IMG/VR virus record: IMGVR_UViG_2913091994_000006
Span: 4,043 to 68,042 of that record
DNA length: 64,000 nucleotides
Origin: a virus
Taxonomy: Duplodnaviria > Caudoviricetes
Strand: one strand, 5' to 3'
Positions 1,301 to 64,000 of the stretch are shown piece by piece. The notes beneath the pieces were generated by a model, which was not told the DNA's origin, made no database searches, and worked only from the letters and a program-made list of their open reading frames with translations. Made by a program: the position numbers and the translations under genes. Positions within the stretch are counted from its first letter, which is position 1; every line of letters starts with the position of its first letter.

Positions 1301-1390
1301 GGAGAGATGCCGGAGCGGCTGAACGGACCGGTCTCGAAAACCGGAGTGGGGGCAACTCCACCGGGGGTTCAAATCCCCCTCTCTCCGCCA
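1301..1390 (+). tRNA. serU: tRNA-Ser(CGA), prophage integration site
   Basis: 90-nt GGAGAGATGCCGGAGCGG...CTCTCCGCCA, long variable arm, CGA anticodon. Confidence 0.97.
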
Positions 1391-1392
1391 CA

Positions 1393-1468
1393 ATTCAAAC
1401 ACTTAGCTCATCTTCTTTCAGCGATCAGTCTCACACTTAGAATACAGTTAGAATATTCTGTTAGAATA
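1393..1468 (+). promoter_or_regulatory. att arm: IHF-like site and three TTAGAATA repeats (probable integrase arm-type sites)
   Basis: ATTCAAACACTTA at 1393-1405; TTAGAATA at 1437, 1448 and 1461, between tRNA and integrase stop. Confidence 0.55.
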
Positions 1469-1492
1469 TTACGTGAAAAACGTATCACCATT

Positions 1493-2515
1493 TTATGCTT
1501 TTTCTGCCAGAAGAGGGGCATCCAGTGATGGTGTGATTTTCACTTTTCGATCATAAGTCAGCACCTGGCTTTCGGTCCTGTGGCCGGAGAAAAGCTGTTT
1601 ATCACGACTGCTGCCTTCATAGTCAGAAATGGCCTTTGCTTTGATATCGTGGAAGGTGCATCCGAACGGAGTACCACATCTGGATTCCGCTGATTTTTTG
1701 GCTTTGTTCCACCATTCATTTACCAGCCGGGGCGAAGCCTTGTTTCCCGTAGCCCCTTTAATAACAAAACCTCCTGACTCTCCAAAGGCATTTCTGGCCA
1801 GTTGAATAGCAGCACGCAGGCGGGGAGACCATTCTTTAATTTGTTTTGTGCCCGTTTTGTTCTGCTCAATATAGATCCCCATGTCCATCACTTCATTCCA
1901 GCGTAGATCAAGAACATCCCCAAGCCGGGCAGCGCACAGGTACGAAACCTCCATCGCAACGCGTAATGCAGGCGTGGCTTCGTCATAAATTGCCGCATAT
2001 TGCTCATCGCTGATGTAGACGGTACGTGGCTTCGAAGTAAATTTACGTACCCCTTTGCAGGGATTGCCCTTCACATACCCACGTTCAAATCCCCATCCGT
2101 AAACACGGCTAAGACTCGCGAGTTCGTGATTAGCCTGTGTCTTACTTTCCAGCCCTCTCTTGTCCATAAAAATTCTAATATGTTCTGTTTTTACCGTGTC
2201 CGCACGCATTTTTCCAAAAACAGCCAGCAGCTTACGCTGGTGCTGGTGATAGTCTTTTTGAGTTCGTGGAGCCAGTTCGGTAAATGCTGGTGAATCAAGA
2301 AACAGATGCCATAATCTGGATACCGTCATTACGTTATTATGTTCGGCTTTTTTTGCCTCATATTTTTGCCACAATACAGCCATACTCGTGCCTTTAATTG
2401 GGGCCAGCGTGATACACGTCCGGCTATTTTTAGGCTTCCAGAAATAGCTATATTTGTTGTAATAAACATAGTCAGGTAATCGGTTGTCTTTCACATTCTT
2501 ACGCGGTCTTGCCAT
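1493..2515 (-). CDS. int: Prophage tyrosine integrase
   Basis: Catalytic motifs AARLGD, TFHDIKAK, FSGH...Y. Confidence 0.93.
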   Translation of the reverse strand: MARPRKNVKDNRLPDYVYYNKYSYFWKPKNSRTCITLAPIKGTSMAVLWQKYEAKKAEHNNVMTVSRLWHLFLDSPAFTELAPRTQKDYHQHQRKLLAVFGKMRADTVKTEHIRIFMDKRGLESKTQANHELASLSRVYGWGFERGYVKGNPCKGVRKFTSKPRTVYISDEQYAAIYDEATPALRVAMEVSYLCAARLGDVLDLRWNEVMDMGIYIEQNKTGTKQIKEWSPRLRAAIQLARNAFGESGGFVIKGATGNKASPRLVNEWWNKAKKSAESRCGTPFGCTFHDIKAKAISDYEGSSRDKQLFSGHRTESQVLTYDRKVKITPSLDAPLLAEKA

Positions 2516-2741
2516 TGTCCAGTGCTCCAAAATCTGGATCAGGAGAAACGAACTCTGATATTTTTGGCAGTGGAACTATAGGTTGCCGAAGGTACATGCG
2601 AAGAACAATAGGTTCGTTTTTCTTCCCGGTTGTAAAAGGTATGCCGTGGCAACGTAATTGTTGCTGTTGCTCCGTATAGCGCGTATACCCGGTGATCTCC
2701 TGAATTTCTTCTGGGGATAACGTCAGTTCATGCTTATACAT
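2499..2741 (-). CDS. Excisionase-like protein (DUF4224 type)
   Basis: LSPEEIQEITGYTRYTEQQQQLRCHGIPF pattern, overlaps the int start. Confidence 0.75.
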   Translation of the reverse strand: MYKHELTLSPEEIQEITGYTRYTEQQQQLRCHGIPFTTGKKNEPIVLRMYLRQPIVPLPKISEFVSPDPDFGALDNGKTA

Positions 2742-14893: not shown

Positions 14894-14943
14894 AAATAAC
14901 CCCGTTGATTGAAATTAGTGCATATCCATTGAAAAATGGCCTT

Positions 14944-15597
14944 TCAACTGGGATGTCCGCTTTCTTCTTGAGAGAAAGGAAATGGGGTCGTGATTCGTTT
15001 GTAAATACCTTCTGCAGCCGACTCTTGTCGATAGCACCAGGTCATAAGTTCGTTAAAAAATGGTCTCCAGTGTCGCGAGTAGCTGGACTGTGAGACACTG
15101 ACAAATAATGTGAGCACATGAAGGCAACGACCATGAGAAAAGGGCTTTAATCCTGAGCCTTTACACCGTGAGCATGTTTTCATCACTGGTTTTCCCGATT
15201 TTATGGATTTCTTGATGTCACGAATTTCACCCCGCCCACCACAAAGACACTTTGCACCCTTAGTGTCCGCAGTCCGGCAGTACTCTTCCAGCACGAGCAT
15301 TGCCATGACCGAAACAGCAATGGGGAAGTTGCCATCAGGAATGCGGGAAAAATACTTCCACGAAATTGACGAAGCATATTTTTGCAGATCGCGTAACGCG
15401 AGTTCGGCAGCATGAAGGTCTTTTGTGTATTTGGCATATATCAATGACAATCCCGCCCGACATCTGGACTGAGTGATGCCGAGGGAGGCGACAATATCAT
15501 CACGGTTAAGGCGATCATCTCCCGAACAACCAGAAGGATGGGCTACAATCTGTGGTGATTTCGGATCGCCAATAGTGATGGCATACTTCAGTCTCAT
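14944..15597 (-). CDS. Q: Lambda-type late antiterminator Q
   Basis: MRL..PKSP, YCRTADTKGAKC, CSRCKGSG zinc finger and SYSRHWRPFF align with lambda Q. Confidence 0.85.
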   Translation of the reverse strand: MRLKYAITIGDPKSPQIVAHPSGCSGDDRLNRDDIVASLGITQSRCRAGLSLIYAKYTKDLHAAELALRDLQKYASSISWKYFSRIPDGNFPIAVSVMAMLVLEEYCRTADTKGAKCLCGGRGEIRDIKKSIKSGKPVMKTCSRCKGSGLKPFSHGRCLHVLTLFVSVSQSSYSRHWRPFFNELMTWCYRQESAAEGIYKRITTPFPFSQEESGHPS

Positions 15598-15669
15598 TCT
15601 GCTAGTGTCTCACGGTTGCTTATAACGGTATTGCATGTGCTATGCACTATGATTGCTGGATTCTTGCCC

Positions 15670-15900
15670 TTACTTGAGCTTCTCCCCGCGCTGCCGAATG
15701 ATTATCTCTGCGTACAGTACATAAGCCGTTTCTCCATATATGTAAGTTTTTTTGATGAAAAATCCTTCACTTTCTTCCCGCAACTGAGGAATGCGCATCA
15801 ATATTTCATCCACCAGTCGGTTGAGTTTTCGCACACTAAAAATGGTGCTGGTAATAATGAGTCTGGCCTCCATGCCAGCATCCTGAAACTCAATTTTCAT
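15670..15900 (-). CDS. Hypothetical protein
   Basis: 76 aa ORF overlapping the upstream gene. Confidence 0.55.
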   Translation of the reverse strand: MKIEFQDAGMEARLIITSTIFSVRKLNRLVDEILMRIPQLREESEGFFIKKTYIYGETAYVLYAEIIIRQRGEKLK

Positions 15901-16789
15901 AGCGGTTAATCCGGGCCAGGTATTTTTTCGCGTTGTTCACCGCGCCGCCCAGTTTTGTACCGGCCTCAACAATCGCGGTCAGTCTGCGAATTTCCCTCAC
16001 GATTTCTTTGGGGGCTGGAGTGACCTGAAGTCCGTAACGTCTGACGGCCTGTACTGCACTATGCGCTTTTTGCAGGCGTGCGAGCTGCGCCTTGTGCCGA
16101 CGCAAATTTTTCGCCACGGTGCGGGGGGAGGGGAGTTCCATCACATCAGGCACTACTGATAGAGTGTCTGCCAGTGGGATGTCGCTGACGGATTCGGCTC
16201 CGGCACTGGCGATATCTGGAGCATCGGCAGACTCGTCAGAAGCTTCCTGCGCGTCAGTTTTCACCACTTCCTGCGATGGTTCGGTTTTATCGGTGACAAT
16301 TACGTCAGGACTGGCTCTGTCGGTATCCGCTACTGGCTCCACGGTCGGCTCTGGTTCATGCGCTGAAACTGACTCTGGCAGGGTGTAGCAATATTTGCCG
16401 TCCTGCTTGATGCGGCTCAGGCGGCCTTTTCCGGTTGCTGTGGCCAGTGTCGAAATAACCTTACGGGATGTGATACCAAACAGCGTCGCAAGATCTTCGG
16501 CGGTCTGTGGACCATGCTCCCTTATGACGTCCATCAGTTGTGGCTCACCGATTTTAGCGGCGGTATCATTCGGCACTTTCGGCTTCGACGTTTTGCGCTT
16601 AACCGTTTTCGTCGTGGCTGGCTTGATGCCAGACAGCGACCAGTAACCGTTCAGAAATGTTACCGTGCCGATTTCCTGCTGCTCGTTCAGCAGGTTCAGC
16701 GCGTCCCGTGGTTCAATATCCAGCCTTGCCGCAATTTCGCGTGCAGTGGCTTTTCCCATCGCTTTCAGCGCATCAAGTACAGATTCCAT
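15890..16789 (-). CDS. DUF1627-like winged-HTH protein
   Basis: MESVLDALKAMGKATAREIAARLDIE N-terminus, usual position after the DnaC-like gene. Confidence 0.75.
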   Translation of the reverse strand: MESVLDALKAMGKATAREIAARLDIEPRDALNLLNEQQEIGTVTFLNGYWSLSGIKPATTKTVKRKTSKPKVPNDTAAKIGEPQLMDVIREHGPQTAEDLATLFGITSRKVISTLATATGKGRLSRIKQDGKYCYTLPESVSAHEPEPTVEPVADTDRASPDVIVTDKTEPSQEVVKTDAQEASDESADAPDIASAGAESVSDIPLADTLSVVPDVMELPSPRTVAKNLRRHKAQLARLQKAHSAVQAVRRYGLQVTPAPKEIVREIRRLTAIVEAGTKLGGAVNNAKKYLARINRYEN

Positions 16790-16808
16790 AAAATTTTCTC
16801 CTGAAAAA

Positions 16809-17555
16809 TTATTTGTGTTGGTTCACGTTTTGCCGCCAGCTTTCCCAGCCAAAAATTACCCAGCGCCCGCCGTTCATCCGCAGGCGGTCAGTCACCCGCT
16901 CCCCCGCCAGCGCCTTCAGTGCGTCAAAATTCAGGTTGGTGAGTATCCCGACCGATTTCATCGACGCAGTACGCCTGTCGACAATCTGGTTCAGGATGAC
17001 AAACTCGTTTTTCGTATCGCGCTGCACGCCAACTTCATCGAGCACCAGCAGGTCAACATCGCAAAGTCCCGACAGGAACGTCTCTTCGGATTTCCCCTTG
17101 TCGTAGCAGGCCCTGACACCGAGCATCACATCGGCCAGGGTGACAATCATCACGGTCTTACCCCGCGCCAGCAGCCGGTTCCCGATAGCCGCCGCCAGGT
17201 GATTTTTCCCGGTCCCTGTCGAGCCGCTGAACACGAAACTGGTAAAATCATCACTGCACAGACTTTCCGCGATGGATTTCGCCTGGCTCAGTGCGTGGCG
17301 CTGGCCATCGTTGACCACCCGGTAGTTCGCGAACGAACACCGGCGGTACAGGTCCCGAATCCCCGAACGACCGAAAATCTTCTCCGCCCTCGCCTGGCGG
17401 TTCTGGCGCTCGATTTCCTCGCTTCGCTTGCGCTCTTCGGACAGCAGCCATGCACGCCACTCGTCGGTGTTGCGGTACGGCGCGGCAGCGGCAGCACCTG
17501 ACGGAGCAAGACGGCGAAAACGTTCCAGAATCCCGTTGTTCGCGATGTTTTTCAT
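16809..17555 (-). CDS. DnaC/IstB-like helicase loader ATPase
   Basis: Walker A GSTGTGKNH, Walker B LLVLDEVG. Confidence 0.9.
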   Translation of the reverse strand: MKNIANNGILERFRRLAPSGAAAAAPYRNTDEWRAWLLSEERKRSEEIERQNRQARAEKIFGRSGIRDLYRRCSFANYRVVNDGQRHALSQAKSIAESLCSDDFTSFVFSGSTGTGKNHLAAAIGNRLLARGKTVMIVTLADVMLGVRACYDKGKSEETFLSGLCDVDLLVLDEVGVQRDTKNEFVILNQIVDRRTASMKSVGILTNLNFDALKALAGERVTDRLRMNGGRWVIFGWESWRQNVNQHK

Positions 17556-17561
17556 GGTGTA

Positions 17562-18482
17562 TTACCCCCTGAAACCCGGTGGAATGGTGTTATCCGGTGG
17601 CGAAATATCCTGGATTCGTGCCGGACTGTCGCGCCCACGGTTGCCTCCCCGGTCCTGGTCTTTCGCCAGCCAACCGGTGATAAATTTTTTGATGCCACGT
17701 GCGGTTTTCCGCCGTCGCAGGTCGCTCAGTAGCCATCCCCGTTGGTTACGCAGCGCCTGCCGGACATTGACCGCCGGATACAGCGTCTCAAACTCGGAAA
17801 CCAGTGATTCGGTCACGGAGAACTCAGAACCGTCGTTCAGCGGCAGCCGGATAAACTCAGGGTCATCGGGACGGGGCATTTCAGGCACACCAGCGCTCAG
17901 AGGCCGTCGCTCAGGTCCGGCATGGGCTGGTCGGGTGCCGTCATGCAAATTCAAACCGCATGATCCCCGGTTTTCGTCCGGCTGTGTGGGGCTGATTTTT
18001 TCAGCACCGCGCAAGAGGTTTTGATCTTTTAGATCTGTATCTTTATCTGGATCTGTATCTTTATTAGTTACCTGTTTGTTGACGTCATGTTCAAACACAG
18101 AACCAACACTTGTTGAACATGTGTTACTTTCGCTGACAGATTGCGTTTTCTTCCTGTCCCTTCTGGACTGAACTGATGCTTTTCCTGCTGCGGACCTTTT
18201 CGCTAAGGTTTCTCTGACTGCAGCAAGATCATCCTCGATACGCTCATGAATCCATTCCGTGCCGTTATCAATGAAAAATTCACTCAACGATTCTTCTACG
18301 GCTCCCCAGCGTTCGCTGCTGACCCGCGCAATTTTCGCCAGCCTGTTTTTTGGTATAGCTCTTCCGGTCTGCCAGTAATTGAACATCAGCAGCAAATAAG
18401 CCCCATGTTCCTCTGTGGACAGGTGCATGGTGTCCGCCAGATAATCAGCGATGTAAAGCTGCATGTATGGAAGTGCTGCCAT
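17562..18482 (-). CDS. Replication initiator (YdaU/DUF1376 family)
   Basis: MAALPYMQLYIADYLADTMHLSTEEHGAYLLL signature. Confidence 0.88.
   Translation of the reverse strand: MAALPYMQLYIADYLADTMHLSTEEHGAYLLLMFNYWQTGRAIPKNRLAKIARVSSERWGAVEESLSEFFIDNGTEWIHERIEDDLAAVRETLAKRSAAGKASVQSRRDRKKTQSVSESNTCSTSVGSVFEHDVNKQVTNKDTDPDKDTDLKDQNLLRGAEKISPTQPDENRGSCGLNLHDGTRPAHAGPERRPLSAGVPEMPRPDDPEFIRLPLNDGSEFSVTESLVSEFETLYPAVNVRQALRNQRGWLLSDLRRRKTARGIKKFITGWLAKDQDRGGNRGRDSPARIQDISPPDNTIPPGFRG
18020..18126. repeat. Probable phage origin: short repeats inside the initiator gene
   Basis: GATCTGTATCTTTAT twice plus TGTTGAC/TGTTCAAACA/TGTTGAACA repeats; lambdoid origins lie inside the initiator gene. Confidence 0.5.
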
Positions 18483-18621
18483 AACGCCTCGCTACGCTCT
18501 TTTTCGGGCTATCTGAAAACATGAATAGATACTCACTGTCCCAACCTCTCCTGTGGTGCCGAACCTCCTGACGGTGCTAGCCTGCTGATTCCCCAACCAA
18601 CAGAACCGAAGGAGGTTCGAT

Positions 18622-18885
18622 ATGACAACCTATTGCCCTATATGCGAAGGACCGGCAGCGTATATAATGAGAAGTGCTGAGGACGTTCGCTCCTATCACT
18701 GCCATATCTGTGGCGATTACGATATTCCTGGCGACTGCGCCCGACTGATGGAGAAAGGGAAAATGCATCCTGATCTGTGCCAAAGAATGCGCACCAGAAA
18801 AAAGGGGCAAGTTCCGCATTTCAAAATTAATGAGTACGGCGCTATTGTCCTAAATTTTCTCCCTGCATCTGACATCAACCATTGA
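18622..18885 (+). CDS. Small zinc-ribbon hypothetical protein
   Basis: CPIC and CHIC motifs; RBS GGAGG upstream. Confidence 0.6.
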   Translation: MTTYCPICEGPAAYIMRSAEDVRSYHCHICGDYDIPGDCARLMEKGKMHPDLCQRMRTRKKGQVPHFKINEYGAIVLNFLPASDINH

Positions 18886-19010
18886 TATCGGATATCGCTG
18901 AATAACGGTTAAAGGTCGCCCTATTCGCGGCCTTTAACCTGGTGTTCAGGTAGACGCGATTAACAATTGCCTTTAGCTCGCCAAGAGTGGTGTCCATAAA
19001 CACGGCGGCT

Positions 19011-19682
19011 TTATAAAGAAACGTTCCATACATAACCGTCATTACCAGTACCTTTTAGCCTTTCAGAAACATTGTCAGCACCCAGCCTTATGTCTCCCAC
19101 TTTCTTAAGCTCATAGGTGGGCGCATATGCGGCGGATTTGTCATGCGCGTCAAAGCAAACCAGTTCCCGGTTCTTCCGTCTGTTTAATTCCTTGTGTTGG
19201 TAGTGGGTTTCACTGGCCATGTCCCTGACACTGCTGACGGTAGCCGTTGCATAACGCCTGTAACGCATGAATGGCTTCGTCACACTCCCGCTCAACATCA
19301 GGGATGGGAGCGCCAAGTAGTACCGAGCTTGCGACGTCCGCTTTTTTAAAACGCGCGAAAGCAGATACTCAACGCTGCCGGAAGCGGTGATACTGGAATA
19401 CAGGTCAAAGTCGTTATCCCTGATAGCCCTGGTGATAGCCGGTAGCAGCAGGTTAAATTTCTTGCGATGCTCATCCGTGCGGCAGGTGAGCCAGCGGGTG
19501 AACAAATTGATGCGGTTTCTGCTCCATGCGGCGTAGTCGATGCTGCCGTCAGCATGTTCTATCTGATGAAGGGCAAGGGAAGGGCGATCAGGCTGGTTAA
19601 ACCATTCGTTCGTGATAAGACGAGTGGCCTCTTCCTGGGTGATTCGCCGCGCCCACATTTCCACGATTTCAGGGGTGATCAT
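19011..19682 (-). CDS. CII/YdaT-like regulator with an apparent -1 frameshift near 19345
   Basis: Position after cro; -1 frame gives a helical C-terminus ending at 19210. Confidence 0.65.
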   Translation of the reverse strand: MITPEIVEMWARRITQEEATRLITNEWFNQPDRPSLALHQIEHADGSIDYAAWSRNRINLFTRWLTCRTDEHRKKFNLLLPAITRAIRDNDFDLYSSITASGSVEYLLSRVLKKRTSQARYYLALPSLMLSGSVTKPFMRYRRYATATVSSVRDMASETHYQHKELNRRKNRELVCFDAHDKSAAYAPTYELKKVGDIRLGADNVSERLKGTGNDGYVWNVSL

Positions 19683-19942
19683 CGTTGTTCAACCTCCCTG
19701 TATTTTCTGGCTGTATACTCAAGTTCGTCCTCAAGCCAGAATTTTCGCCAGGAATCAGGAAGCATTTCCTTTCGTGTGACTTTACCGTTGGTGATTATCT
19801 CGATAGATAGTGCTCGGGAGGCGGGTATTCTGGTATACCCCGATGCCATCTGAGACAGAAACGAGGATGTAATGCCCATTTTTAGCGCCATACTGCATAA
19901 TTCACCGCGATCCATTGAGGAAATATAGTCTTTTAAACGCAT
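19679..19942 (-). CDS. Cro/YdaS-like HTH regulator
   Basis: GITSSFLSQMASG...IEIITNGKVTRKEMLPD. Confidence 0.85.
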   Translation of the reverse strand: MRLKDYISSMDRGELCSMALKMGITSSFLSQMASGYTRIPASRALSIEIITNGKVTRKEMLPDSWRKFWLEDELEYTARKYREVEQR

Positions 19943-20040
19943 ACAAATATCCTTTATCTTGAGGTAAGTAAATATTACTTAAAATGGATCAATTGGTAAA
20001 GTGATTGCTTCCTTTTTTAACGTTAATTAAAATTAATGCT

Positions 20041-20391
20041 ATGGAAATAAAAGAAATCAGACGTAGACGCTTGAAGGAGTGGTTTGCCGATGGCAAATAT
20101 CCCGAGAAAGATTCAAGCTACATATCTCAGGTCATCAATGGTAAAGCCATTGGAGAGAAGGCTGCGCGTAGACTGGAGCGTGATTATGAGATGCCGGAAA
20201 TGTTTCTGGATATGCCTTATGATGTCCAGGAAAGCAAAACTGTAGAGCTAACGGACAGGCAGCGTAAGGTTGTAGATTTGCTGGACTCCCTGCCAGATGA
20301 TGAAGTTGATGAGTTTATCGTTAAGCTTCAGGAGCGTAAGGCTTTTTATGATCGTCGTTTACGAGCTTATCTGGCTAAAAATATGCCTTGA
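20041..20391 (+). CDS. Prophage repressor without an S24 peptidase domain
   Basis: Divergent from cro; SYISQVINGKAIGEKAARRLE HTH; 116 aa. Confidence 0.8.
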   Translation: MEIKEIRRRRLKEWFADGKYPEKDSSYISQVINGKAIGEKAARRLERDYEMPEMFLDMPYDVQESKTVELTDRQRKVVDLLDSLPDDEVDEFIVKLQERKAFYDRRLRAYLAKNMP

Positions 20392-20407
20392 TTTTTTTAC
20401 CGTTTAC

Positions 20408-22781: not shown

Positions 22782-23060
22782 TCAGGCGTGAGACAAAATA
22801 GGTTTAACTTCCGGCCTGCTACCCTGTGATGCAACCCAAAGTTCGTACTGAGACTGCATGTCAGTCCACATTTCAGCACTGGTTCCAAGAGCTGCTTCGA
22901 GACGCAGTGCCATATCAGCAGAAATACCCGCACTTCCGTTTAAAATACGGGAAAGCGCGGCACGCGTAACATTGAGCGCTTTTGCTGCATCGGTAACAGA
23001 AACATCCCCCAGGTATTCACGAAGAACAGCGCCGGGATGTGCGGGGTTGTGCATTCTCAT
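22782..23060 (-). CDS. higA: HigA-family antitoxin
   Basis: MHNPAHPGAVLREYL...ISADMALRL. Confidence 0.9.
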   Translation of the reverse strand: MRMHNPAHPGAVLREYLGDVSVTDAAKALNVTRAALSRILNGSAGISADMALRLEAALGTSAEMWTDMQSQYELWVASQGSRPEVKPILSHA

Positions 23061-23069
23061 AATCGTTCC

Positions 23070-23351
23070 TTAGTGGTAGTCCAGATAGTCAACAAGGATC
23101 GCATCTTCGCCATCAAAGCGAAACGTCAGTCGCCAGTTACCGTTAACGGATACAGCCCAATGTCCTTTCAGACGATTTCCTCTGAGTGGGTGTAACTCCC
23201 AGCCGGAAGCGGCCATATCATCAGGCTTTTTTGCAACGTTCAGGGCGGTAAGCTGGATCTGAAGTTTAACTGCGTGCTTCGCCTGTATGCCGGAAGTTGA
23301 GCCGGTTTTAAAAAATCTCTCAAGTCCCTTGTGGCGAAAGCTTTTGATCAT
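23070..23351 (-). CDS. higB: HigB (RelE/ParE) toxin
   Basis: MIKSFRHKGL...VNGNWRLTFRF...DYLDYH. Confidence 0.9.
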   Translation of the reverse strand: MIKSFRHKGLERFFKTGSTSGIQAKHAVKLQIQLTALNVAKKPDDMAASGWELHPLRGNRLKGHWAVSVNGNWRLTFRFDGEDAILVDYLDYH

Positions 23352-23453
23352 ATTGCTGTCTCGTATAGTGTATATAAACACTATACATGGTAGTGCGTAT
23401 AAAATCAATATTTGGCATTGAATGAAAAAGGCTGATTACGTTAGTATCCAACC

Positions 23454-23582: not shown

Positions 23583-23658
23583 GGCCCTTTAGCTCAGCGG
23601 TCAGAGCAGACGGCTCATAACCGCTTTGTCGCTGGTTCAAGTCCAGCAAGGGCCACTA
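23583..23658 (+). tRNA. tRNA-Ile2 (CAT, ileX/ileZ-like); 3' end reads CTA instead of CCA
   Basis: GGCCCTTTAGCTCAG...CTCATAA...GGTTCAAGTCC...GGGCCA. Confidence 0.85.
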
Positions 23659-23763
23659 TGCAAGTGTAGACTACTAAATAAGTAGCCTACCGATGCGATA
23701 GTCTTTCCACGCATGACTATAAATATCGTCGTGGTGACGGCAGGGAAAGACCTGTATTCATAA

Positions 23764-23838
<75 letters not shown>

Positions 23839-23966
23839 GAATCTCAGTACATCACTCACGAAGAAGGGTAAACCGGAGCGTTTGGTGTGCTGCACAACTG
23901 CATGAGTATTGAAGGAACCTGAATCCGCCTTCTTCGTAGGTCTGGCACTGAGCAGTACTCATGACA

Positions 23967-24198
23967 GTTGTGGTGAATGCGTAGGCTGATACGCTGACGA
24001 GAGAGAGGTCAGTAGAAATACTGAATAGCAGAGAGAGTGGAATGTGGTAGGTGCCACACTGGAGTACCAGACAAAGCTCGTGCAATGTGCAGGCTGACGG
24101 GTTAACGAAGATACGCACCTTGATACGTTAGCCATATGAAATCCAAAAAGTGTTAGTGAAACCACCTTAAGCCGGAGATCAGCACCGGCCACCGCAAC
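23967..24198 (+). ncRNA. Related structured RNA with complementary loops GCTGA / TCAGC
   Basis: Closing stem GTTGTGGTG / CACCGCAAC with internal hairpins GCGTA-GGCTGA-TACGC and GCCGG-AGATCAGCA-CCGGC. Confidence 0.55.
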
Positions 24199-24223
24199 AA
24201 CTAATTGCACGATACAAAGTACC

Positions 24224-24252
24224 AGAGCCTGTTCTTCGGAACGGGCTTTTTT
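24224..24252 (+). terminator. Intrinsic terminator
   Basis: AGCCTGTTC-TTCG-GAACGGGCT followed by a T run. Confidence 0.8.
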
Positions 24253-24334
24253 GTCTCCGTTTGTCGCGTAGTGACTTCACATAACATAGCAACGATATTT
24301 ACATTTAACATTATATCAATTGTAATGTTTTCAT

Positions 24335-24454
24335 GTTGCAGTGAATCCCACTAGCGTAGGGGCGAAAGGCCAGATTTTCATATTGTGCTGATTTTCGCGG
24401 GTCATGGTGTACTGGCGTACCAAAGGCTCATCGGGAGGCACCCGACACTGCAAC
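24335..24454 (+). ncRNA. Structured RNA motif copy 2
   Basis: GTTGCAGTGAATCC...GGCTCATCGGGAGGCACCCGACACTGCAAC. Confidence 0.65.
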
Positions 24455-24461
24455 AACTCAT

Positions 24462-24538
24462 CCGCCACTAGCTCATCCGGACAGAGCAGCAGCCTTCTAA
24501 GCTGTAGGTACGAGGTTCAACTCCCCGGTGGCGGACCA
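24462..24538 (+). tRNA. tRNA-Arg(TCT)
   Basis: Acceptor CCGCCAC/GTGGCGG, anticodon loop CTTCTAA, CCA end, 77 nt. Confidence 0.85.
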
Positions 24539-58068: not shown

Positions 58069-59298
58069 ATGCCAATAATCTCAGGCACACTCAAAGACGG
58101 CGCCGGACAGCCCATTGCCGGTTGCACTATCCAGCTAAAGGCGATGAACACTACCAGTGCGGTAATCAGGAGCACCACCGCGAGAGTTGGCGCGAATGCT
58201 GGCGCGTACAGTATTGATGCTCAACCAGGCCGCTACGAAGTGACGCTGGCAGTAGAAGACTACCCGCCGCATAAAGTTGGCGTCATTGATGTCTACGCCG
58301 ACTCTCCGGACGGGACGCTGAATGATTTTCTGACCGCAACAAAAGCGGAGTACCTGACGCCGGATGTGATGAACCAGTTTAAGTTGCTGGCGCAGCAGTC
58401 CAGGGAAGCCGCAGAAGCGGCTGGCGTGGCCTCTCAGGGCGTATCCACGATAAAAGATGCAGCAGAAAAAGCCGCCAGTAACGCTGCTTTGTCAGAAAAC
58501 AATGCGGCAGCCTCAGCGCTGGCAGCCAGAACAAGTGAAGCCAGTGCTTCAGACTCGGCAACCAAAGCAGATGCCAGCGAGAAAGCCTCCGCGTTGCACG
58601 AGCAGTCTGGCGCAACCCACGAAACAAACGCGGGGCAAAGCGCAGCAGATGCTGCATTAAGCGCAACAAAGGCCGCTGATTCTGCATTAAACGCCGGGAA
58701 ATCCGCAACGGAAGCCGCCAGCCATGCAACTGATGTGCAAACACAGGCCGGGAATGCAGCTACCAGTGCAGGGGAAGCCCGACAGGCCGCGCTGGACGCA
58801 CAACAGGCGGCAACAAAAGCGGCAACTGACGCAGTGGCGGGCGCGGTTCCGGCAGCCGTGGAGCAGGTAAAAGCCGAAATTGCCGGAAATGTAACCCGTG
58901 CCGAGACCGCCGCCGCCAGTGCAGAGGTCAGTAATACCGGGGCGCAAAAGGCGCTGGAAGAGGCGAAGCTGATTGCGAAAACGCCGGGTGCGCCGGGTAA
59001 GGATGGAGCGCCGGGGTTACCAGGCAAGGACGGTTTACCGGGTTTACCCGGCAAAGACGGAGCACCAGGACTACCAGGACTACCGGGGCCACCCGGCGCA
59101 CCTGGTAAAGACGGCGCGCCCGGTCATGACGGCAGATCAGCTTACGGAATCTGGCTGGACAATCAGCCAGTGGGCGCAGACACCTCCATGACGGCCTTCC
59201 TTGACTCCATGAAAGGCAGTGGCGGCGGTGAAGGTAGCGGCGGTGCTGTTCCGGGCTATGGTGAAGTAGGTTCTTATGTTTGGGCGGTAATAAATTGA
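58069..59298 (+). CDS. Side tail fibre (Stf-like) with collagen-like segment; tip domain apparently cut off
   Basis: [16 protein letters not shown]-domain, Ala-rich coil, G-X-Y repeats, stop just after VGSYV. Confidence 0.8.
58987..59133 (+). repeat. Collagen-like Gly-X-Y repeat
   Basis: [49 protein letters not shown]. Confidence 0.9.
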
Positions 59299-60456: not shown

Positions 60457-60978
60457 ATGGCTATTTACAGCGGCTTTAACCCGATACCCCCGGTAAAGGG
60501 CCTGCATGTTAAGGGAATGATCACGCTGGGATCTGACGTGGTTATTCCTGATTCGCTCCTTCTGAAACTGAAACCGCAGAACAGTACCAGGCTGGGTTCC
60601 CCGTCCGTTCTGGGCAATACGACCAATACCCAGCTTCCGGAGCGCCGTATCCTTAATGTGGTCAACACGTATCTGAAAACGCCACTGACCGATGAAGAGC
60701 TGAAACTGATACTGGCAAACCGCTATAAGTTTGAGTTCACGATTGGCGCAGGCGACAGGCGGGAAGTCCTTAAAGAGCGATTCAGGCTGACAACCAACTG
60801 GCACGGTGAAGATGTGAATAATTTATTGCTCAGTCCCGAACCGTGGGACGGCTGGCCGCCTTACCTGTTCAGTTTCAGTTTTTCCGGCAGGACGGGAGAG
60901 ATGAGTCTGACAGACAGTCATTCAAGCGGAAACACCTACGGTGCTATACGTTATCTGACAATAAGGGTTAAGCCATGA
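60457..60978 (+). CDS. Hypothetical protein
   Basis: 173 aa ORF in the operon. Confidence 0.65.
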   Translation: MAIYSGFNPIPPVKGLHVKGMITLGSDVVIPDSLLLKLKPQNSTRLGSPSVLGNTTNTQLPERRILNVVNTYLKTPLTDEELKLILANRYKFEFTIGAGDRREVLKERFRLTTNWHGEDVNNLLLSPEPWDGWPPYLFSFSFSGRTGEMSLTDSHSSGNTYGAIRYLTIRVKP

Positions 60979-61014
60979 GCCGCTTCACAACGCCCGCTAT
61001 TCTCGAAATGCTGG
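60975..61014 (+). pseudogene. Duplicated 5' fragment of the DUF1353 gene
   Basis: Encodes MSRFTTPAILEML, identical in protein to the start at 61124. Confidence 0.8.
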
Positions 61015-61123
61015 TGAGAACCCAAAAAAAAACGGGTACATTTCTGTACCCGACAATACGGTAGTCAAACGGAACACTCTTATAAGTCACCTTTCTTATT
61101 TCATACGCAGCAGATAAAAAACT

Positions 61124-61477
61124 ATGAGCAGATTCACAACTCCGGCAATCCTTGAAATGCTGGATCATTACCTGTGGCGTGTTTACGAGCCTTTTGAATT
61201 TTACCTCAGTGACGACAACAGCGACGTGATCGAGGTTCCAGCAGGCTTTATCACTGACCTTGCGACAGTGCCGCGTATTTTCTGGGTATTGTTACCGCCA
61301 GACGGCAAATACGCCAAAGCGGCAATAATTCACGATTATCTCTACGACAACGCGCTGCGTACGAAGAAGGAGGCCGATCGCATTTTTCTTGACGGGATGA
61401 CGGTGTTAGGCGTTCCTAAGTGGAAACGGATTGTGATGTATCTGGCCGTGCGGTTGTTTGGTCGGGGGAGTTACTGA
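61124..61477 (+). CDS. DUF1353-family protein
   Basis: VPAGFITDLATVPR, AAIIHDYLY, AD.IF. Confidence 0.85.
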   Translation: MSRFTTPAILEMLDHYLWRVYEPFEFYLSDDNSDVIEVPAGFITDLATVPRIFWVLLPPDGKYAKAAIIHDYLYDNALRTKKEADRIFLDGMTVLGVPKWKRIVMYLAVRLFGRGSY

Positions 61478-61485
61478 TCGAGGTG

Positions 61486-61587
61486 TTATTTTTTCTTGTT
61501 TGCTTTTTCAATCAACGCTGGAATAACGTCAAAGCAAACGTAAAAGACCAGAAACACCAGAAAAAACGCTTCTATTGTTGCAAACAT
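61486..61587 (-). CDS. 33-aa single-TM micropeptide
   Basis: Manual translation MFATIEAFFLVFLVFYVCFDVIPALIEKANKKK. Confidence 0.45.
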   Translation of the reverse strand: MFATIEAFFLVFLVFYVCFDVIPALIEKANKKK

Positions 61588-61622
61588 ATTATGTGACACA
61601 GAACCCCCGATGGTTAGTCTTG

Positions 61623-61730
61623 CTACCTGCTTCCATTCTTGCGAAAAAAGTCATCAGCGAAAGCTGCCACGACAATAACTATCGCATAGATAACGATAAA
61701 CCCGAACAGTACAAGAACAATTGAACCCAT
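61623..61730 (-). CDS. 35-aa single-TM micropeptide
   Basis: MGSIVLVLFGFIVIYAIVIVVAAFADDFFRKNGSR; RBS GGGGA. Confidence 0.6.
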   Translation of the reverse strand: MGSIVLVLFGFIVIYAIVIVVAAFADDFFRKNGSR

Positions 61731-61948
61731 AGTTTCCCCGAAAAAAAAGAGGGGCCGGTAGCCCCTGAAATTGCTGGTTACGGTTAACAACACGGCACCT
61801 GATGGTGCTCTTTAGTAAATGGACGATTAACGCTTTATTTTTTTCGCGTATGCAGTGTGTGGATGTCAACAAAAATAGAAAGTAGGTAGATGGTTGACGC
61901 TATCAACGGGAAGGGGTTGTGAAGGATTGGGCGGGTGCATATCCGCAA

Positions 61949-62053
61949 TCAACTATCGTGACCGTGCAGATACTCATCAACAATGGCTATCATGATAATG
62001 ATAAGCGCAAAGATAACACCAATCCCGAGCAATATAAGCGCAAATTTACTCAT
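61949..62053 (-). CDS. 34-aa single-TM micropeptide (paralogue of 61623-61730)
   Basis: MSKFALILLGIGVIFALIIIMIAIVDEYLHGHDS. Confidence 0.6.
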   Translation of the reverse strand: MSKFALILLGIGVIFALIIIMIAIVDEYLHGHDS

Positions 62054-62320
62054 GGTTCCGCCAAAAAAAAGAGGGGCGTCGGATCATGCCCCTATATAAT
62101 AAAAAAATAACAACAAGGATTATATTGCATGAACCTTATTTCATACGCAGCAGATGCAGGTCAAGCCAGTAAAATGAATTGATGTTATGAGATTAAGCGA
62201 TAGGTGTGACGCCCGACAACGTGAAAGATCACCTGGAAACACGTTGCGTCGTGTATTCGGGCGTCACCTTTCACTTATGACAGGATCGGGGGAAAGCAGC
62301 AAATAAAAGCACAATAAAAA

Positions 62321-62518
62321 TTATTCGCTTTTGATGATAGTACCGAGAGAGCCTTCTCGCGGTTCTCCAACATTATTGAGCACAACATCAAATGTACCGA
62401 CCAGTAACACAGTGATGCAGATAGCCTGCACGACAACCATCAGCCACCTGAAAATAATGAACGGCAGTATTTCAGTCCAGTAAACCGATTTCTTAAAAAA
62501 CAGAATCTTCTTCAACAT
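62321..62518 (-). CDS. Small membrane protein
   Basis: MLKKILFFKK..WLMVVVQAICITVLLVGTF. Confidence 0.45.
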   Translation of the reverse strand: MLKKILFFKKSVYWTEILPFIIFRWLMVVVQAICITVLLVGTFDVVLNNVGEPREGSLGTIIKSE

Positions 62519-63098
62519 AGTCAATTCTGTTGGCAACATCCGCACGTTGAAAAGCGAACGCGATCACGGCGGGAACAAGGATGAGGGTTCGTATAACAGC
62601 TTTCATCAGTGATTCATCTGGTAAAAAAAAGGGCTACTTGCGGAGCCCTGCTTGCAACATGGATAGGAATCGACACCTTATGGCGCTCTTTATTGGGCAA
62701 ATCAAGTGCTGGGTGTCTTTTTCGTGTTTGCAGGTGGTAGTTGTCAATAAAAAAAGAAGGGCGAATCGCAAAGCCCCGCAACGTAAAAAACTGTGGGGCT
62801 TTTTTTTCAAAGATGGATGTTTTAAATTTATTTTCTTTATTTTACAGTTGGGTAGGTTGCTATTTAAAGTTCCCGAAAGGCATTTTAACCGCTGATAGTT
62901 AGTGGAGACCGCAACTCCTCGCTATGCAAGAAAGGGGAGGGGCTACGGCCAGATGGGGATCGTTCGATAGTGCGAGTATTGAATGATTGCCTGTCGCAGC
63001 GGATTGTACTTATCTAAAATGACAAAACAATGCGCTTTATCTGTAAAACTTAGTAACTGTGTCAGATGTTGGGGCAGGGAGTATGTTGAGGGAAAATA

Positions 63099-63527
63099 TT
63101 AATCTTTGCTTACTTTGCCTGTCGGGAAAAGTCCACGGATCACTCCAAGGAATGCTGCGAAAACGTTCAGTGTTACTGCTGTTGTTATAGCAATCATTAC
63201 TTCATTGGGAAAAATTTCATATCCCCAGATCTTGGATATACCATAACAAAACAAAAGTATTGCCCAACCATAAAGGGTTTTGCGGACAACCTTATAAGCT
63301 TTATCCCCAAATTTTTCCCTTAGGGCTCGGTCTGCTTTACGATCTTCAATTTCTTGAATTACTAAAGCATCAGTAAAAACATCCTTCTTCCCATGAGGAG
63401 GGACATCTTCTTGACTTATAATTTGGGAGCCAGTGGGAACCGTTTTTTCATCAAAGAATGGATTAGCATCCGGTGTGACACCCCCGGATGCTTTCGTTGT
63501 ATTGTTTTGATGAACAATGTCGGTCAT
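63099..63527 (-). CDS. Candidate PanT toxin with two TM helices
   Basis: ATGA overlap with the Panacea gene; two hydrophobic segments. Confidence 0.6.
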   Translation of the reverse strand: MTDIVHQNNTTKASGGVTPDANPFFDEKTVPTGSQIISQEDVPPHGKKDVFTDALVIQEIEDRKADRALREKFGDKAYKVVRKTLYGWAILLFCYGISKIWGYEIFPNEVMIAITTAVTLNVFAAFLGVIRGLFPTGKVSKD

Positions 63528-64000
63528 TGAGGGTGTATATACTTCTGCATTTGTTCAAGGGAAATGACGCTCCCATTGTCTGGACCCATCGACCATGCGG
63601 CACCAGGTGCATGAGTCATCGCTGAAAGCTCAGAACCCGAATACTTTCCGTAGGCAGAAGAAATCTGATCGATAAGTTGTATCGCCGACTCATCTGCGCA
63701 ATTTATCTCTGGGGTTACGATTCGCACGCCCTGAGGCGTTTGTATTATGCTGGATATCTTACGAGTTACTTGATGATATCCATACGGTTTTAGTTCTTGA
63801 TAAATAGAAGGAACTACTGGACCAAACTTCCAGCGCTCGAAATTATCATCAAATAACGGAATACCTTGGTTGAAGCGAAGATACCAAGACTGTGTATAGA
63901 AAAGCAGCTTTTGGACCTTCATCGGTGTCAGGTCAGGAATAATCCCTCTCTGAGCACGATCAATGAAGGCATTAGCTACTGCTTGTGCAGAATACGCCAT
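63524..64000 (-). CDS. Panacea (DUF4065/SocA/GepA) antitoxin
   Basis: VAN.FI, LTPMKVQKLLFY, W.FGPVVPSIY, LSAMTH....W. Confidence 0.88.
   Translation of the reverse strand: MAYSAQAVANAFIDRAQRGIIPDLTPMKVQKLLFYTQSWYLRFNQGIPLFDDNFERWKFGPVVPSIYQELKPYGYHQVTRKISSIIQTPQGVRIVTPEINCADESAIQLIDQISSAYGKYSGSELSAMTHAPGAAWSMGPDNGSVISLEQMQKYIHPQ

Follow-up and report, generated by a model that had tools for sequence, protein, structure and literature searches.

The window examined here (the whole 64-kb stretch of DNA that was analysed) comes from a 68-kb IMG/VR provirus, IMGVR_UViG_2913091994_000006, a lambda-like prophage that belongs to the Salmonella/Citrobacter group. Between positions 61486 and 62810 its minus strand carries an array of very small genes for hydrophobic peptides, and each of the three units of this array consists of a promoter-like block, a leader and an intrinsic terminator, followed by one or two small hydrophobic open reading frames (ORFs). 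An initial annotation of this DNA had placed repeated minus-strand units of this kind here, and all three were located where it had put them. In the direction of minus-strand reading the features are as follows (nt, nucleotides; aa, amino acids; SD, Shine-Dalgarno sequence; pN/pS, the ratio of nonsynonymous to synonymous differences, given as pooled pairwise values from pairs that are not independent):

62719 to 62755, minus strand: promoter-like block of leader 3, with a T-run, TTGACA (62747-62742), a gap-free 17-nt spacer that includes CTGCAA, and CGAAAA (62724-62719)
62673 to 62690, minus strand: AAGAG and 5-bp hairpin of leader 3, GCGCC AUAA GGUGU, with two G.U pairs
62622 to 62649, minus strand: terminator 3, AGGGCTCCGCAAGTAGCCCT followed by T8, stem 62649-62630
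62604 to 62618, minus strand: mini-ORF of three codons, ATGAATCACTGA (ATG AAT CAC TGA), whose stop overlaps the ORF-A start (TGATG)
62493 to 62606, minus strand: ORF-A, 37 aa, a single hydrophobic helix; pN/pS 0.46 from 5 distinct sequences
62321 to 62518, minus strand: ORF-B, 65 aa, hydrophobic, overlapping the end of ORF-A; pN/pS 0.29 from 7 distinct sequences
62203 to 62290, minus strand: near-invariant palindromic block of ~90 nt, an 11-bp outer stem GTGACGCCCGA / TCGGGCGTCAC enclosing inner pairings and a variable central loop
62119 to 62164, minus strand: promoter-like block of leader 2, with TTGACC (62164-62159), a 17-nt spacer ending in TATG, and AAATAA (62141-62136)
62063 to 62093, minus strand: terminator 2, AGGGGCATGATCCGACGCCCCT followed by CT8, stem 62093-62072, with a 10-nt loop
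61949 to 62053, minus strand: P2, 34 aa, a single helix with a DEYLHGHDS tail, SD-like GGCGGA upstream; pN/pS 0.32 from 6 distinct sequences
61841 to 61877, minus strand: promoter-like block of leader 1, with a T-rich stretch, TTGACA (61869-61864), a 17-nt spacer that includes CTGCAT, and CGAAAA
61795 to 61812, minus strand: AAGAG and hairpin of leader 1, GCACC AUCA GGUGC
61741 to 61766, minus strand: terminator 1, AGGGGCTACCGGCCCCT followed by CT8, stem 61766-61750
61623 to 61730, minus strand: P1, 35 aa, a single helix with a DDFFRKN tail, SD-like GGGGA upstream; pN/pS 0.20 from 4 distinct sequences
61486 to 61599, minus strand: M37, 37 aa, hydrophobic; pN/pS 0.36 from 3 distinct sequences

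Leader 3 is followed by ORF-A and ORF-B, leader 2 by P2, and leader 1 by P1 and M37, and in each unit a start codon stands close behind the terminator, at distances from the T-run of 16, 9 and 10 nt in units 3, 2 and 1. The three terminators have folding energies of -9.8, -10.4 and -11.7 kcal/mol (z about -2.2 to -2.4), and the peptide-proximal terminators are one-directional, the opposite strand having no T-run. A consensus terminator scan of 60900-63200 gave 5 terminator-like sites, 4 of them on the minus strand, compared with 2.1 ± 1.3 in shuffled sequences; one of the four minus-strand sites is a leader hairpin and no terminator, and the scan skipped the unit-2 terminator because of its 10-nt loop.

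Leaders 1 and 3 have two blocks in common that the initial annotation had also picked out: TTGACA..CTGCA.AC.CGAAAA has 2 matches in the 64 kb (0.00 expected) and AAGAGC(A/G)CCAT.AGGTG likewise has 2 (0.11 expected). Alignment of 12 such class-1 leaders gives a common plan of a T-rich stretch, TTGAC, 17 nt that include CTGCA, CGAAAA, a variable stretch, A(A/C/T)AGAG with the 5-bp hairpin, a variable linker and the terminator. None of the 12 has an indel between TTGAC and CGAAAA, and the remaining leader is indel-rich. In the hairpin 90% of cells are paired and 3 of the 5 pairs have changes on both sides, pairing values that were matched in 12-16 of 500 shuffles, and when the partners were shifted by 1-3 columns as a control only 23-47% of cells were paired. 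Several copies carry G.U pairs that would read A.C on the opposite strand, and because these pairs form only in RNA of the array (minus) strand, the hairpin is an RNA feature of that strand. Class-2 leaders, to which leader 2 belongs, share the -35-type hexamer with class 1, followed by a related spacer, ..CTGC(A/G)T(A/G)TG, and AAATAA; in leader 2 itself TATAAT at 62124-62119 is a second possible -10. The palindromic block always lies ~45 nt upstream of the class-2 promoter-like block, is conserved far better than the flanking peptide genes, and has in L014 a variant with an array-strand G.U pair; it may be an operator, an RNase III site or a recombination site. The same block stands in another context in L011/L012 (~1985-2100), where a 37-aa hydrophobic ORF (MDNTLIIISLL..) follows ~110 nt on with no intervening terminator.

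The class-1 leaders can also be read as protein-coding: a GUG or AUG lies 13-14 nt after AGAG, in the 3' arm of the hairpin, and opens a frame of at least 20 codons that crosses the terminator in 8 of the 12 leaders, with ends that vary relative to the peptide start (in frame, -24, -10, +1, +74 and +77). Translational coupling through this leader ORF is not favoured, since the ORF occurs in 8 of 12 leaders yet its geometry is inconsistent. Readings of the promoter-like block as a sigma-54, LexA-box or CII-type element, or as a likeness of immunity-region operators, gave no fit by eye or by pattern.

Are these very small ORFs genes? Six peptide families, the five of the window and a P3 family of the relatives described below (pN/pS 0.42 from 4 distinct sequences), keep their frame and length, with pooled pN/pS values of 0.20-0.46. 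Conservation had been proposed with the initial annotation as a check on the peptides, and on this comparison of sequences the array ORFs are real protein-coding genes under purifying selection. P1 and P2 align end to end without gaps at 32% identity (hhalign probability 95%) and are probable paralogues, as had been supposed of the two 34-35-aa peptides that begin, after gaps of 9 and 10 nt, behind two of the terminators. A similar kinship of P3 with P2 was tried and found unsupported (hhalign probability 7%). The further ORFs of the initial annotation stand in part: its 65-aa ORF is ORF-B at 62321-62518, its "33-aa" ORF is the 37-codon M37, which starts at a GTG (ATG in relatives) and has 33 codons when counted from an internal ATG, and the 37-aa ORF-A, overlapped by the 65-aa ORF, was missing from it. 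Purine-rich SD-like sequences precede P1, P2 and M37, and the 23-nt gap that separates M37 from P1 contains no terminator. ORF-A itself lacks an SD, and this together with the mini-ORF, which L022 and L023 carry at the corresponding place with other codons (ATGAATTATTGATG), hints at termination-reinitiation coupling. A programmed +1 frameshift from ORF-A to ORF-B at T6-AA was rejected, as in L005/L023 ORF-A ends before the T-run and ORF-B retains its ATG.

Related arrays were found by pattern and protein-anchored scans in five IMG/VR proviruses (L022-L026), in metagenome contig L027 and in three prophage regions of one Citrobacter braakii genome, one of which (contig 21, L013) is the L026 array, judged from features that are identical in L008 and L013; the comparison could draw on about 9 arrays. 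At the DNA level the array occurs in 1 of 401 sampled Enterobacteriaceae species genomes (one genome per species, Salmonella included) and in 1 of 18 genomes of the positive genome's genus, and a P1/P2 profile finds it in 2 of the 401. ORF-B has 90 relatives among 5.8 billion proteins, the named ones all being "hypothetical protein" entries of Salmonella enterica or C. braakii, and no more than 24 cluster representatives out of 1.84 billion match the P1/P2 profile, the named ones from Salmonella. No close DNA relatives were found by megablast in 5,426 Escherichia coli genomes, and a collection of 50,697 phage records gave none with blastn, nor any match with tblastn when ORF-B was the query. 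The hairpin motif alone is not specific, as in viral contigs it gave 5 unrelated coding-region matches in addition to 2 known loci.

At seven of the eight loci searched, families A, P1, P2 and P3 have 19 starts in all, every one of which stands 9 to ~35 nt behind a G+C hairpin and a T-run, and at the eighth, L027, ORF-B itself is placed behind such a hairpin and T-run. This layout is not confined to the window, and expression must pass a terminator, as the initial annotation had reasoned from the start codons right behind terminators. The terminator stems of homologous cassettes differ yet stay paired (for example GGGGC/GCCCC and GGGGU/ACCCC). Half of the fetched P1/P2 representatives (11 of 22) had been given a start too far upstream, and their sequence has ..P(L/S)FF.. 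right before the true methionine, an extension that is the in-frame translation of the terminator 3' arm and T-run. The arrays compared here indicate that the order of terminator and then start codon is a conserved design feature and no accident of this genome. The second Enterobacteriaceae genome holds at L036 (G301:C1, ~1500-1810, minus strand) a distant P2-like 34-aa ORF behind a T7, with no clean G+C hairpin visible before the T7, and adjoining it a 33-aa hydrophobic ORF placed behind a short hairpin and T6; from its sequence L036 is best described as a diverged two-cassette version of the array.

The cassettes have also exchanged parts. There are three in the window array and four or five in relatives, and the same peptide family is found behind leaders of different class: P1 is preceded by a leader of class 1 at three loci (the window, L022 and L023) and by one of class 2 in L026, and for P2 the leader is of class 2 at four loci (the window, L022, L023 and L014) and of class 1 in L025 and L016. 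The junction between leader and peptide falls at the T-run and SD, and the leader plus terminator is an exchangeable 5' module that recombines independently with different peptide genes. Each array opens with a leader and closes with an ORF. Three of the arrays (L022, L023 and L026) have an upstream neighbour gene on the opposite strand, and array-strand terminators precede the first leader there (two in L022 and L023, one in L026), and therefore the array needs its own promoter and cannot simply ride on an upstream operon.

The surroundings of the array include the following features:

58069 to 59298, plus strand: collagen-repeat tail fibre gene, before the array
Between the collagen-repeat fibre gene and the DUF1353 gene, plus strand: DUF4376 tail-fibre protein gene, then a 173-aa ORF
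61024 to 61115, minus strand: "unit 0", a second copy of a 21-nt element (61115-61095), then a strong terminator at 61052-61033 with T9, -13.1 kcal/mol
61124 to 61477, plus strand: DUF1353 protein gene, the last plus-strand gene before the array
62772 to 62818, plus strand: boundary hairpin with a plus-strand T-run, read by eye

The array thus follows the tail-fibre, DUF4376 and DUF1353 genes, and its G+C content is 0.42-0.45 compared with 0.48-0.64 in the tail region. Unit 0 lies between the DUF1353 gene and a truncated duplicate of that gene's 5' end, and its terminator is the probable end point of array read-through transcripts. The exact 21-nt element ATCTGCTGCGTATGAAATAAG (minus strand) has one copy near the start of the DUF1353 gene and another in the promoter-like block of the class-2 leader (62155-62135), and 149 nt upstream of the DUF1353 gene lies a duplicate of its first 45 nt at 80% identity (60970-61163); the duplication and the repeat are recombination scars between the array and the end of the tail genes.

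From the window end downwards the minus strand carries a SocA/Panacea gene, a 142-aa membrane-protein gene, the boundary hairpin and the array. The SocA/Panacea-domain gene (63524-64000, minus strand; PF13274, E 2e-19) has as its start codon the last three bases of the record, and it overlaps by 4 nt the gene for the 142-aa protein (63099-63527, minus strand; phrog_33656), which has a C-terminal hydrophobic region. This pair (63099-64000) immediately precedes the array and resembles a Panacea antitoxin with a membrane toxin. The boundary hairpin has an A8 at its minus-strand 5' side and one G.U pair that is possible only in plus-strand RNA, and at this upstream border of the array it likely serves to end plus-strand transcripts, whether late or antisense; the assignment was made by eye, as folding of this hairpin began inside its stem and was uninformative.

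The array has the orientation of int (1493-2530, minus strand), so in the excised circle it would fall downstream of int, as the ea genes of the lambda b region do. A tRNA-Ser(CGA) gene immediately adjoins the integrase gene (window 1301-2530) and is probably attL; the tRNA-Asn gene and peptidase M90 gene to the left of it are likely host DNA within the provirus call. For attR, no repeat of the tRNA-Ser/attL region occurs anywhere in the window, and the record stops short of the prophage's right end. The minus strand at 14900-20400 carries Cro-like, CII/YdaT-like, O-like, DnaC-like, DUF1627 and Q-family antiterminator genes, on the same strand as RecE and int, and the plus strand carries a repressor-like gene, NinB, an HNH gene, three tRNA genes (Met, Gly, Arg; 23583-24538) and the lysis and structural genes; this unusual order of the early-region genes points to an inversion, or to two prophages joined in a composite. 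A HigB-like toxin (phrog_3066) and helix-turn-helix antitoxin (phrog_1381) pair lies in a nin-like region at 22782-23408 on the minus strand, and the J-type tail gene is ~72% identical to its counterparts in Shiga toxin (Stx) phages. A search of public sequence runs gave only two with relatives of parts of the stretch (word shares 0.07 and 0.24), and both are assembled contigs, which carry no transcript starts, ends or levels.

How might such an arrangement work? Tentatively, and with a little less than even confidence, we read the array as a row of autonomous accessory ("moron"-type) cassettes in which a promoter-proximal terminator throttles or gates the expression of membrane-active peptides and releases a short structured RNA. 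The array fits the moron class because its G+C is lower than that of the tail region and because it stands beside the tail fibres. Each cassette would consist, in order, of a T-rich stretch, a TTGAC hexamer of -35 type with an A-rich hexamer at a set distance from it, a leader of 45-100 nt, a strong intrinsic terminator, an SD and a single-helix peptide gene or a pair of them. Transcription would begin at the leader promoter, and the terminator would halt most transcripts to give the short structured RNA as a by-product or co-product; a minority, larger under some condition, would read through to become peptide mRNA, and the terminator would in this way limit the dose of putative superinfection-exclusion factors or low-dose toxins. 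That late transcription converges on the array suggests expression in the lysogen and not in late lytic growth. This account starts from things observed directly, namely the anatomy of the array, its conservation, the constraint on its ORFs at the protein level, the RNA hairpin of the array strand and the shuffling of modules, and from them it would predict promoter activity, efficient termination, translation, membrane action and a biological role.

Several observations weigh against the throttled-cassette account. No leader has a canonical -10, and, as the initial annotation had cautioned of the TTGAC hexamers, no sigma-70 consensus promoter was called there; the hexamers at 17-18 nt are CGAAAA, GAAAAA, AAATAA or TAGAAG, all of them without the final T, and the predicted promoter activity may need a factor. 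The leader folds contain no conserved alternative (antiterminator) pairing, and any switch that regulates read-through does not show in them. The peptides have no match in Pfam, PHROG, NCBIfam or PADLOC, and none above 0.83 in the ESM Atlas, so that the putative role as membrane toxins or in exclusion is drawn from their size, hydrophobicity and position.

The hairpins and T-runs might instead be ordinary 3' ends, insulators or short shared recombination sequences, the peptides receiving leakage with no regulatory purpose. Leader and ORF do recombine at the T-run and SD (L026 P1 compared with window P1 and P2), the region has duplication scars (the 21-nt repeat and the duplicated DUF1353 5' end), and terminators are commonly mosaic boundaries in lambdoid phages. 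We consider so passive an origin quite unlikely, since each array begins with a leader that no ORF precedes and ends with an ORF that no leader follows, conservation of the leader hairpin and of the fixed-spacing TTGAC block exceeds what a 3' end requires, and purifying selection on the peptides implies that they are expressed somehow. A different possibility is that the leader hairpin is a nut-, RAT- or qut-like site for the antitermination protein of the induced prophage or of an incoming lambdoid phage, with peptides made only then. The order of promoter, motif with 5-bp hairpin, 25-35 nt, terminator and gene mirrors the early and late units of lambda, a Q-family protein is encoded at 14944-15597 of the window, and by its common orientation with int the array would lie, like the ea genes, downstream of int in the excised circle; against this stand the lack of any identified N-like protein or nut site, the plus-strand late transcription that converges on the array and would oppose it, and the state of the boxA-like string. 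The initial annotation had pointed to a boxA match on the plus strand of the conserved hairpin, and the exact 9-mer occurs only in the two window copies among the 12 leaders (the 7-mer complement AAAGAGC is in 7 of the 12). A boxA (CGCTCTTA / TGCTCTTTA) on the transcribed strand beside a boxB hairpin was not found in the leaders, the match being on the non-transcribed plus strand whereas terminators, ORFs and G.U pairs are on the minus strand. A scan of the 64-kb window for the leader motif with up to 3 mismatches, the pre-lysis-gene region included, gave its two array sites and no others, and a link between the array leaders and the phage's own late promoter is not supported by this search. 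All told, such a gate strikes us as very unlikely. Its boldest form, in which the leader is a decoy antitermination site that senses the antiterminator of the prophage or an invader and read-through releases membrane-depolarising micropeptides as an abortive-infection or exclusion switch, we regard as highly improbable; if it were true, the exchangeable leaders would be the specificity determinant and the peptide paralogues interchangeable warheads, and the switch would be made from transcription termination alone.

Two further explanations place the weight on the terminated RNA. The leaders could be regulatory small RNA (sRNA) genes, of the Hfq- or ProQ-type trans-acting kind or dual-function like IsrK. 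The terminated RNA would then be the principal product, with targets among host or phage mRNAs or in its own read-through isoform, and the peptides would be secondary. The class-2 leader, with an A/U-rich stretch, a G+C hairpin and U8, has the layout of the 3' modules of Hfq-binding sRNAs, the class-1 leader has a conserved single-stranded AAGAG with a covarying hairpin, and the leaders are as well conserved as the peptides; the IsrK locus as outlined in PMC4825925 is a precedent. We think this unlikely to be the main function, because no leader in 60800-64000 has an Rfam match at E <= 1, the 5' "seed" portion is the least conserved part of the class-1 leaders, duplexes between leaders and start sites do not go beyond shuffles (z -2.7 to +1.7 over 15 pairs, none conserved), and the tight conserved linkage of terminator and start codon is left unexplained. 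The cassettes could, on the other hand, be toxin-antitoxin (TA) systems with an RNA antitoxin, in which a membrane-toxin peptide is neutralised by the abundant terminated leader RNA, the terminator setting the ratio of RNA to toxin as in type III systems, or by an antisense RNA. The order of promoter, non-coding RNA, terminator and toxin gene is the defining one of type III in PMC3401426, and tandem small hydrophobic paralogues are typical of type I toxins as PMC2887945 describes them. The leaders have no tandem nucleotide repeats, however (Tandem Repeats Finder gave two trivial 2-copy repeats, both outside the leaders), the supposed toxins are 27-37-aa helices and no endoribonucleases, the complementarity of leader and mRNA is again that of shuffled sequences, and no Pfam or NCBIfam match to the Hok, Ldr, TisB, Ibs, ShoB or Fst toxin families was found at E <= 0.1. 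The cis-antisense RNA that the initial annotation had entertained under type I finds no counterpart either: the sole plus-strand promoter-like site in the array (62430-62458) is not kept in relatives, L026 having two overlapping plus-strand promoter-like sites at another place, and no conserved antisense promoter or terminator was seen in the arrays (by eye in the relatives; none called on that strand in L023). We therefore find RNA-antitoxin cassettes very doubtful.

Whichever way its terminators act, the array brings to the Salmonella/Citrobacter prophages no fewer than six small-protein families (P1/P2, P3, A, B and M37) and two leader RNA classes that lacked annotation, and gene callers mostly overlook the peptides or give them false N-terminal extensions through the terminator. 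Four peptide fragments were absent from full-text papers and the array was not found described by topic, supplementary tables lying outside this search. If the peptides are throttled as we tentatively propose, the repeated design of promoter, leader, terminator and micropeptide with independent swaps would be a compact natural system for terminator control of the dose of a membrane-active product, and one in which to ask whether prophages restrain toxic or excluding peptides by means of terminators. Were the gate to respond to antiterminators, it would represent a novel type of phage sensor.

How does the array compare with known systems? Phage morons are autonomous insertions of promoter, gene and terminator in the late regions of lambdoid phages (the concept of Hendrix and Juhala). 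Like them, the array has small accessory genes of lower G+C beside the tail-fibre module, which appear to have signals of their own and to be dispensable for building the virion. The moron order is promoter, gene, terminator, whereas that of the array is promoter, terminator, gene: it has a conserved fixed-spacing TTGAC without canonical -10 as candidate promoter and a terminator that lies between this block and the gene, and it has several cassettes in a row with a shared, exchangeable 5' leader module. The constitutive promoter of the lambda pR'-tR' (6S RNA) unit gives a short terminated RNA unless the polymerase is termination-resistant, and for this unit and the nut early units the likeness is the short terminated RNA proposed here; the transcribed strand of the array differs in having no qut or nut features, the array is opposite to the late operon, and the phage late region has no leader motif. 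Small prophage membrane proteins that block superinfection, such as HK97 gp15 and the Cor proteins of phi80 and N15, have their genes next to those for the tail and work at the membrane or envelope of the lysogen. The array is likewise encoded beside tail genes and its peptides would putatively act at the membrane, but they are unrelated in sequence, much smaller and behind terminators. Compared with ribosome-mediated attenuators of the pyrBI or trp type, the leader ORF crosses the terminator in 8 of 12 leaders with inconsistent ends, and the folds have no conserved antiterminator.

Closer in outline is the IsrK locus of the Salmonella prophage Gifsy-1, where, according to the account in PMC4825925, a single promoter gives a short terminated RNA and a read-through mRNA and IsrK tunes a harmful protein; the same pair of transcripts from a prophage promoter is proposed for the array. 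The array has no sequence or Rfam relation to IsrK, its genes are for 27-65-aa membrane peptides and those of IsrK are orf45-anrP (PMC4825925, as outlined there), and no trans pairing between short and long forms was found in the array. In type III TA systems (ToxIN, CptIN, TenpIN), as PMC3401426 sets out, a terminator between the RNA region and the toxin gene regulates their relative levels and the components are spaced by 1-50 bp. By the features outlined in PMC3401426 the array is similar in that a short palindromic terminator precedes the peptide genes (19 of 19 starts) and dissimilar in that it has no tandem RNA repeats and no endoribonuclease of the ToxN, CptN or TenpN type, its 27-65-aa hydrophobic peptides having no PADLOC or Pfam match. 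Membership in the IsrK family or in type III TA is excluded by these features, as far as they can be read from the DNA. From the type I systems (Hok/Sok, Ldr/Rdl, Ibs/Sib, Zor/Orz) the array differs in that no antisense or divergent sRNA gene was found, a terminator lies between promoter and ORF, and no family matches; it shares with them, as they are described in PMC2887945, hydrophobic peptides of fewer than 60 aa (here 27-37-aa single-helix peptides under purifying selection), tandem paralogues, long structured 5' regions and a location on a mobile element.

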